Made by a program: the position numbers and the translations under genes
Assembly: GCF_003334815.1 (NCBI RefSeq)
Contig: NZ_QOWO01000049.1
DNA from: Escherichia coli
GTDB taxonomy: Bacteria > Pseudomonadota > Gammaproteobacteria > Enterobacterales > Enterobacteriaceae
DNA: 23,721 bases
Direction: 5' to 3' (one strand)
The notes under the pieces: model-generated
Told to the model about the DNA's origin: nothing
What the model saw: only the letters and a program-made list of their open reading frames with translations
The model's database searches: none
Part shown: piece after piece, positions 22,483 to 22,538 of the stretch
Layout: each line of letters opens with the position of its first letter
How positions within the stretch are numbered: the first letter of the stretch is position 1

Positions 22483-22538
22483 ATGATAATATAAGTAAAG
22501 CCCCGAAAAATTTTTCGGGGCTTTACTTATATTATCAT
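22483..22538. terminator. 56-bp perfect palindrome, candidate bidirectional intrinsic terminator
   Basis: 28-bp arms verified base by base, centred on AAAAA|TTTTT with GC core GCCCCG/CGGGGC; lies between convergent gene X and the DUF932 gene and overlaps the latter's stop codon. Confidence 0.7.

Follow-up and report, generated by a model that had tools for sequence, protein, structure and literature searches.

A 56-bp perfect palindrome between convergent genes in the leading region of an F-like plasmid, probably a two-way intrinsic terminator

Bidirectional intrinsic terminators are reportedly found genome-wide between convergent genes of E. coli, a conclusion said to come from full-length RNA profiling. 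In the leading region of F-like plasmids, stem-loop sequences carried by the transferred strand (T-strand) have been described as Frpo/ssi and ssp elements (Masai and Arai 1997; Couturier 2023; Wen 2025; Fraikin 2026). The known single-stranded DNA (ssDNA) promoters, namely Frpo1 and Frpo2 (ssiD and ssiE) and the ssp classes 1-3, are large stem-loops located upstream of operons, with reconstituted -35 and -10 boxes, and the known ssi sites of the F leading region are the Frpo elements themselves. In the screen for stem-loops of this kind the folding threshold was < -75 kcal/mol (Wen 2025). The F operon that follows Frpo1 consists of ygeA and ygeB, the latter being the DUF932 gene as assigned by position, and a single deletion of ygeB could never be constructed (Couturier 2023). 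The gene nearest to oriT, ygfA, has the opposite orientation to the other leading genes; it is not templated by the T-strand and is expressed only once the plasmid is double-stranded (Couturier 2023). The locus described here lies at the point where these two units converge.

The DNA analysed, called here the window, is a stretch of 23,721 nucleotides from an E. coli assembly (contig NZ_QOWO01000049.1) and represents a conjugative plasmid of the F-like type (MOBF/MPF_F). Its minus strand carries the tra operon, with traM (20876-21283) scoring above the NCBIfam cutoff, and oriT is located at about 21.3-21.7 kb of the window. Gene X (21732-22238, plus strand), which encodes an SLT/IagB-like lytic transglycosylase and is the counterpart of F orf169 (ygfA), converges with a DUF932 gene (22535-23356, minus strand) equivalent to F orf273 (yubP; ygeB by position in F). 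Gene calls therefore agree with the convergent flanking genes proposed in an earlier reading of the bare sequence (the original prediction). From the gene X stop to the palindrome there are 244 nt (22239-22482, plus strand), and the TGA stop codon of the DUF932 gene (22535-22537, minus strand) is located within the right arm of the palindrome. The F plasmid carries gene X, palindrome and DUF932 gene in an identical arrangement. The DUF932 gene closes the oriT-proximal leading-region operon and is templated by the T-strand. The putative nic region of the window, CGGGTGT/GGGACTTT (21594-21608, plus strand), aligns with the F sequence GGGGTGT/GGTGCTTT, and hence the plus strand is the transferred one, an orientation in agreement with Couturier 2023. 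This supports the earlier proposal that the palindrome enters the recipient in single-stranded form, and on entry it would follow the putative nic by about 880 nt (~0.9 kb).

The surroundings of oriT show several peculiarities. Dense GAGTATA-type repeats occupy positions 21335-21511, just upstream of traM, and include a perfect inverted repeat with 18-nt arms (21442-21459 and 21464-21481); they are probably the TraM-binding (sbm-like) sites of the oriT allele of the window. Over gene X, the palindrome and the DUF932 gene the most similar plasmid is pEc631_2, with 99.3% identity, whereas the oriT/nic allele (21540-21740) differs from those of both F and pEc631_2. Since the allele differs in spite of that identity, a recombination junction would be situated between oriT and gene X, in a mosaic backbone. 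The interval 19837-20876, where F has traJ (with finP antisense to it) between traM and traY, contained no obvious traJ ORF and no Rfam FinP hit. An XRE-type HTH ORF of 103 amino acids is found there on the opposite strand (20234-20545), with weak matches to NCBIfam phage-repressor/antitoxin HTH models. Taken as a whole, this arrangement suggests that regulation of the tra operon is organised in an atypical module for an F-like plasmid.

The 56-bp perfect palindrome with two 28-bp arms was borne out to the nucleotide: the arms, 22483-22510 and 22511-22538, adjoin directly (0 nt apart) and show 100% complementarity. The anticipated layout, a GC core between A/T runs, was also found. The A/T-rich outer left arm ATGATAATATAAGTAAA (22483-22499) is followed by GCCCCG (22500-22505), by a central A5T5 run AAAAATTTTT (22506-22515) that provides the loop and the innermost pairs and whose length is 9-11 nt among relatives, by CGGGGC (22516-22521), and by the outer right arm TTTACTTATATTATCAT (22522-22538), the mirror of the left one. 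No other inverted repeat of the window is as long, the runner-up being the one at 21442-21481, whose arms have 18 nt. Perfect arms reached at most 7-10 nt when the whole window was shuffled 40 times with dinucleotides preserved, and a perfect arm of 28 nt has an analytic expectation of ~4e-12; the palindrome is far beyond chance. The predicted fold of the 56-mer, on either strand, is a 26-bp stem closed by a 4-nt loop, with a free energy of -38.4 kcal/mol as RNA (z = -9 to -10 in 96-nt contexts) and of -26.5 kcal/mol as ssDNA (z = -11 to -13).

The spacer that precedes the palindrome (22239-22482) showed no unusual fold when considered as a structured element (z = -1.2). It was also considered as a decayed DUF5983 gene, and tblastn returned only matches with E = 0.39 to 1.9, over the antisense of gene X, which were taken as noise. 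The spacer holds a small hairpin, ATGCCGC-GATA-GCGGCAT (22267-22284), 28 nt past the gene X stop and lacking a T tract, whose stem is identical in F with an AAAA loop; it may serve gene X as a hairpin of the RNA 3' end or of RNA processing.

Another inverted repeat is found inside the coding sequence of gene X (21860-21906), about 260 nt from the putative nic. This 47-nt quasi-palindrome, which encodes 15 residues, has 23-nt arms that are 91% complementary and separated by 1 nt, and is conserved in F (L002 5889-5935) and in Salmonella (L004 953-999); it is absent from gene X of the IncFIIK-type plasmids. In the Salmonella and pS19_141-type copies both sides have changed, from GTTACC/GGTAAC to GTAACC/GGTTAC, one of the two changes being non-synonymous (Y to N), and in another lineage a G.T has become G-C. 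Its non-Watson-Crick positions are G.T on the plus strand, and it would therefore fold better as T-strand DNA or as gene X mRNA.

Distribution of the palindrome was analysed with a 181-nt query centred on it, which matched 4,550 PLSDB plasmids (Escherichia 3,302, Klebsiella 595, Salmonella 496, Shigella 127). The conservation that the original prediction had asked to be verified in related plasmids is thus extensive, covering more than 4,500 plasmids of the F/R100/pSLT type, F included. There is one locus per plasmid; the additional matching place in nearly every record is the palindrome aligned with its own reverse complement and not a second copy. F itself has the same arms with the centre GAAA-TTTTTT-C, and the central A/T run occurs as A3T6, A4T5, A5T4, A5T5, A4T6, A5T6 and A6T4. 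Judged from these sequences, the perfect 56-mer is one allele, and the conserved object is a stem of 23-26 bp with a small, slippage-prone A/T loop. A scan of one genome per species, with the adjacent DUF932 3' motif, gave 78 loci, from which 5 were real copies, with identical arms and variation restricted to the central run. On this sampling the palindrome is confined to the F/R100/pSLT-like clade.

No Rfam 15 family reached its gathering threshold anywhere in the window, and a permissive scan gave sub-threshold generic hairpins only, such as His_leader (33.6 bits, the threshold being 49) and miRNA precursors. A dispersed palindrome of the REP/BIME class was discarded, the element being a single locus per plasmid and not present in many copies per replicon. 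A folded site of the integron attC or sso type was also discarded: direct reading revealed neither GTTRRRY/RYYYAAC boxes nor extrahelical bases, and the size is wrong. A published account of the palindrome was not found in the literature searched, which did not cover the 1989-1999 sequencing papers on the F leading region, so that an earlier mention is possible.

Evolution of the stem was studied in an alignment (A1) of ten copies of the palindrome chosen across the identity range. Standard pairs accounted for 98.8% of its cells, and both-sided changes preserving the pairing were found at 6 of the 26 pairs, in at least three lineages. Shuffling of the columns yielded 1.0 +/- 0.8 both-sided pairs, with none of 500 shuffles equalling the observed six, and all slid controls of the same alignment gave 0 both-sided changes. 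RNAalifold predicted the same helix independently. In the pS19_141 type (12 records at at least 99% identity) a G.C pair of the core is replaced by U.A; the p04IncF type (5 records, three countries) has four compensated pairs together with one U.G and one A.G; and the Salmonella pSLT-like type (~335 records) has two compensated pairs and one mismatch. In two lineages the DUF932 stop codon is TAA instead of TGA, and its partner base in the left arm, non-coding and about 50 nt distant, has changed to match (pair 47/99, with GC in eight sequences of the alignment and AU in two). C or G has entered the A/T tracts through several of the compensated changes, which indicates that what has been kept is pairing itself and not A/T richness alone. 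An allele changed on one side only, with C.A on the plus strand and U.G on the minus strand, persists in 42 records.

Conservation of the sequence itself is also higher in the arms. When the window is compared with the Salmonella copy, identity amounts to 87-91% in the arms, 76% in the 3' end of the DUF932 gene and 57% in the spacer. Diversity within E. coli plasmids is modestly lower in the arms (0.040-0.047) than in the flanks (0.066-0.073). In the Salmonella pSLT-like plasmids the DUF932 gene (L004 1606-2424) has become a pseudogene, interrupted by two in-frame stops and two frameshifts, next to an intact hairpin. Retention of the hairpin beside the pseudogene would fit a transcription boundary better than a gene-specific element. 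The lineage with the pseudogene spans roughly 335 Salmonella plasmid records.

The palindrome is probably a bidirectional intrinsic (Rho-independent) terminator and 3'-end stem-loop at the convergent junction. Gene X (plus strand) ends at 22238 and the DUF932 gene (minus strand) at 22535, which situates the element between the 3' ends of convergent units. The inner core, GCCCCG-AAAAATTTTT-CGGGGC (22500-22521), has a predicted 9-bp stem and 4-nt loop on both strands, with an RNA dG of -14.8 kcal/mol; written as GCCCCGAAAAATTTTTCGGGGC, or as GCCCCGAAAA/TTTTCGGGGC, it is GC-rich and qualifies as a stable hairpin. Followed by TTTACTTATATT, the core scores as an intrinsic terminator on both strands. 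The tail after it, TTTACTTATATTATC, is the same on both strands, with 5 T in the first 8 positions, and its TransTermHP-style score of 4.10 exceeds the 99th percentile (3.89; mean 2.08) of random 15-mers of window composition. For transcripts coming from gene X the tail is the T-rich tract TTTACTTATATTATCAT (22522-22538, plus strand), which pairs with the A-rich left arm, and for those coming from the DUF932 gene it is the mirror tract (22483-22499, minus strand). The U-tract is weak, as three consecutive U are followed by ACUUAUAUU. With a simple consensus scan for terminators, the F allele was recognised as terminator-like in the DUF932 direction; in the window the site was missed, as its T tract is taken up into the maximal stem. 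The loop behaves as a loop, its A/T count being variable.

The original prediction had proposed a bidirectional terminator for the convergent genes, a proposal that stands as the best-supported reading, with support of a comparative and structural nature (junction position, core metrics, compensatory changes and hairpins of the relatives). The accompanying statement that the stem is followed by U-rich sequence is correct for the inner GC core and incorrect for the full stem, after which come GACUUCC and CCUGCGG; the U-rich tract is the outer part of the full stem itself, and is positioned 3' of the GC core only. Moreover, F-like plasmids of the IncFIIK type and of K. aerogenes have unrelated hairpins flanked by A/T runs exactly at the point of convergence with gene X. 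By analogy, unrelated hairpins at the equivalent junction are what would be expected if a two-way stop of transcription were needed there. No published RNA 3'-end mapping (Term-seq, 3' RACE) or termination data for the site were found in the literature searched.

Two transcription units would meet at the palindrome. The oriT-proximal leading operon (Frpo1, ygeA and DUF932/ygeB) would be transcribed toward oriT off the incoming T-strand, and gene X would be transcribed away from oriT after the plasmid becomes double-stranded. In the nascent RNA of either strand the GC core hairpin, GCCCCGAAAA/UUUUCGGGGC, would form, and UUUACUUAUAUU would follow, leading to release of the transcript. The A-rich 5' arm would then zip with the U-rich tract into a 26-bp terminal stem, which should protect the 3' end. 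In this manner transcription of the leading region would not continue, antisense to gene X, as far as oriT and nic, nor would that of gene X enter in antisense the leading genes, silent in donors. Actual termination at the palindrome, its efficiency and the rationale of insulation are what we infer from the features described above.

If this proposal holds, the hairpin would be the boundary between the zygotic programme, that is the genes expressed from the incoming strand, and the side of gene X, oriT and tra, with the transcription of each side kept out of the other, which would be useful for annotation. It would also provide a compact natural two-way terminator for the engineering of F-derived vectors and a defined site to mutate for groups mapping the early events of conjugation. 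The understanding of terminators or of conjugation would be unchanged unless a role at the single-stranded stage proves real.

Some properties of the palindrome are not accounted for by termination. Termination needs a much shorter stem than 26 bp and, alone, leaves unexplained why compensated pairs are found as far out as the end of the stem, 17 bp beyond the GC core. Changes that preserve symmetry can also appear in a DNA palindrome in the absence of selection, through templated correction within a strand, and the 244-nt untranslated stretch after gene X is a place where Rho could already terminate. One explanation, which appears improbable, is that the 26-bp double-stranded RNA with which the DUF932 and gene X mRNAs would end is mainly an element of processing or stability, with termination being secondary; it could be either an RNase III substrate that limits expression or a block to exonucleases that prolongs it. 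RNase III accepts uninterrupted double-stranded RNA of about 20 bp or more, a size range that includes a stem of 26 bp. The predicted perfect RNA stem of -38.4 kcal/mol exceeds what termination requires, and the pairing is conserved out to the last base pairs. However, this function is inseparable from that of a terminator by sequence, since any terminator hairpin stabilises 3' ends, and the hairpin has been retained beside a DUF932 pseudogene. Equally improbable is that the outer arms have no function at all, a core terminator being contained in a longer palindrome whose symmetry is maintained passively by intra-strand template switching, that is by quasi-palindrome correction during replication or the ssDNA stages of conjugation. 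Every compensatory change is equally a symmetry-preserving one, imperfect alleles persist in minor lineages (C.A in the 42 records, A.G and U.G in the p04IncF type), and the diversity of the arms in E. coli plasmids (0.040-0.047) is modestly below that of the flanks (0.066-0.073). The comparison with Salmonella argues the other way, as correction keeps symmetry and not sequence, and the arms are 87-91% identical when the spacer is 57%. A site recognised in double-stranded DNA, either an operator for a dimeric regulator or a cruciform bound by a structure-specific protein, is very improbable. Although the dyad symmetry is perfect and its A5T5 centre would favour extrusion, and symmetric changes in half-sites are also expected of an operator co-evolving with its protein, the changes are spread over all 23 arm positions, with free swaps of bases (G.C to T.A, T.A to C.G). 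Such a spread fits badly with base-specific half-sites, which normally have 6-10 bp; besides, the variation of the centre between 9 and 11 nt would shift the phasing of the half-sites, and the location is at the 3' ends of genes, away from a promoter.

The remaining explanations place the function of the palindrome in ssDNA. A promoter or priming site, as had been suggested originally, received no support in any of the known forms as regards size, energy, promoter geometry, position or homology. A promoter of the Frpo/ssi type was rejected on the energy of the ssDNA hairpin, -26.5 kcal/mol against a threshold of < -75 kcal/mol, and the possibility that the palindrome is the tip of a larger ssDNA structure was rejected because only the palindrome persists in the centroid of a 341-nt fold. 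In the stem there are only -10-like and weak -35-like hexamers 0-5 nt apart, instead of the 16-18 nt spacing; with 26 bp, it is shorter than a 29-bp promoter and cannot hold a correctly spaced -35/-10 pair. One nearby promoter match (9/12) uses a -35 outside the stem. The position is likewise not that of a promoter, as the palindrome is at the DUF932 3' end of the T-strand-templated operon and Frpo1 is upstream of ygeA/ygeB. Comparison by blastn of 22420-22600 with positions 44000-68000 of F, which hold both Frpo elements, detected only its own locus and its own reverse complement. Primosome assembly sites of the PriA or G4 type, ssDNA hairpins from which the complementary strand is primed in a rifampicin-resistant manner, lack a reliable definition at the level of sequence. 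A different role in the recipient as a T-strand DNA hairpin is unlikely, though less so than the readings considered above. The hairpin could stop or displace the RNA polymerase coming from Frpo1 before the TraI-bound 5' end, pause the synthesis of the complementary strand as a small ssp2-like roadblock, or mark a primer hand-off. The plus strand is the T-strand and the palindrome is the first long perfect hairpin to enter, ~0.9 kb after nic; its ssDNA fold is stable (-26.5 kcal/mol, z = -13), the stem exceeds the need of a terminator with its outermost pairs compensated, and the second conserved quasi-palindrome, in gene X, is contained in the same first kilobase and folds better as the plus strand. 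In addition, the leading-region stem-loop ssp2 can stall complementary-strand synthesis, which is primed in vivo by Frpo transcripts (Fraikin 2026). Against this role, the hairpin falls far short of the known ssDNA elements in stability (< -75 kcal/mol for the latter), lies outside any larger fold, has neither promoter geometry nor similarity to Frpo, and is not accompanied by a hairpin of this kind at any other leading-region operon end in the ~15 kb of F examined. The IncFIIK-type relatives make do with stems of 6-8 bp at the junction, and a perfect palindrome carries no strand information, so that nothing favours DNA over RNA. A combined proposal, somewhat more doubtful, is that the long perfect stem exists in order that the boundary works on a single-stranded template. 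The T-strand and RNA hairpins together would stop and release the RNA polymerase started at Frpo1, and would perhaps pause the complementary-strand polymerase primed there; neither polymerase would thus arrive at gene X, at oriT or at the 5' end bound by TraI, on which recircularisation depends; and the gene X hairpin (21860-21906) would be included in the same architecture of the ssDNA stage. Among the explanations considered, the two-way terminator is the best supported by the comparative data and the modelled folds, and the palindrome most likely performs an ordinary function in an unusually long form.

Placed beside the known systems, the palindrome shares with the Frpo/ssi elements (ssp1-3) and the ssp2 roadblock the presence of a stem-loop sequence on the T-strand of an F-like leading region. 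It differs from them in dimensions, ~56 nt and -26.5 kcal/mol in comparison with several hundred nt and < -75 kcal/mol, and in being downstream of the operon, without -35/-10 geometry or sequence similarity. With REP/BIME elements and the stem-loops that stabilise 3'-UTRs it has in common the condition of extragenic palindrome at convergent 3' ends and the potential to block 3' exonucleases, but unlike REP/BIME it is single-copy per replicon and has no GC-rich imperfect REP architecture. The hairpins of the IncFIIK-type (L011 1083-1110) and K. aerogenes (L013 about 2694-2724) plasmids occupy the same place in the map, between gene X and the last leading gene, and like the palindrome they are flanked by A/T runs and score as terminator-like on both strands, whereas their sequences are unrelated and their stems have 6-8 bp. 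In those plasmids an extra DUF5983 gene (L011 1116-1424; L013 2361-2690) is inserted between the DUF932 gene and the hairpin. The DUF5983 plasmids have in addition a separate small GC hairpin after the DUF932 stop, for example at about 2335-2358 of L013, followed by TTTT, which could be an internal attenuator. In relation to the usual bidirectional terminators, the palindrome is distinguished by arms of 23-28 nt, about twice the usual length, a perfect stem, an interrupted U-tract (UUUACUUAUAUU) and a start at the stop codon of one of the genes, DUF932. As in those terminators, a GC-rich hairpin bordered by an A-tract and, on its opposite side, by a T-tract is positioned between the stop codons of convergent genes, giving a hairpin and a U-tail on both strands.
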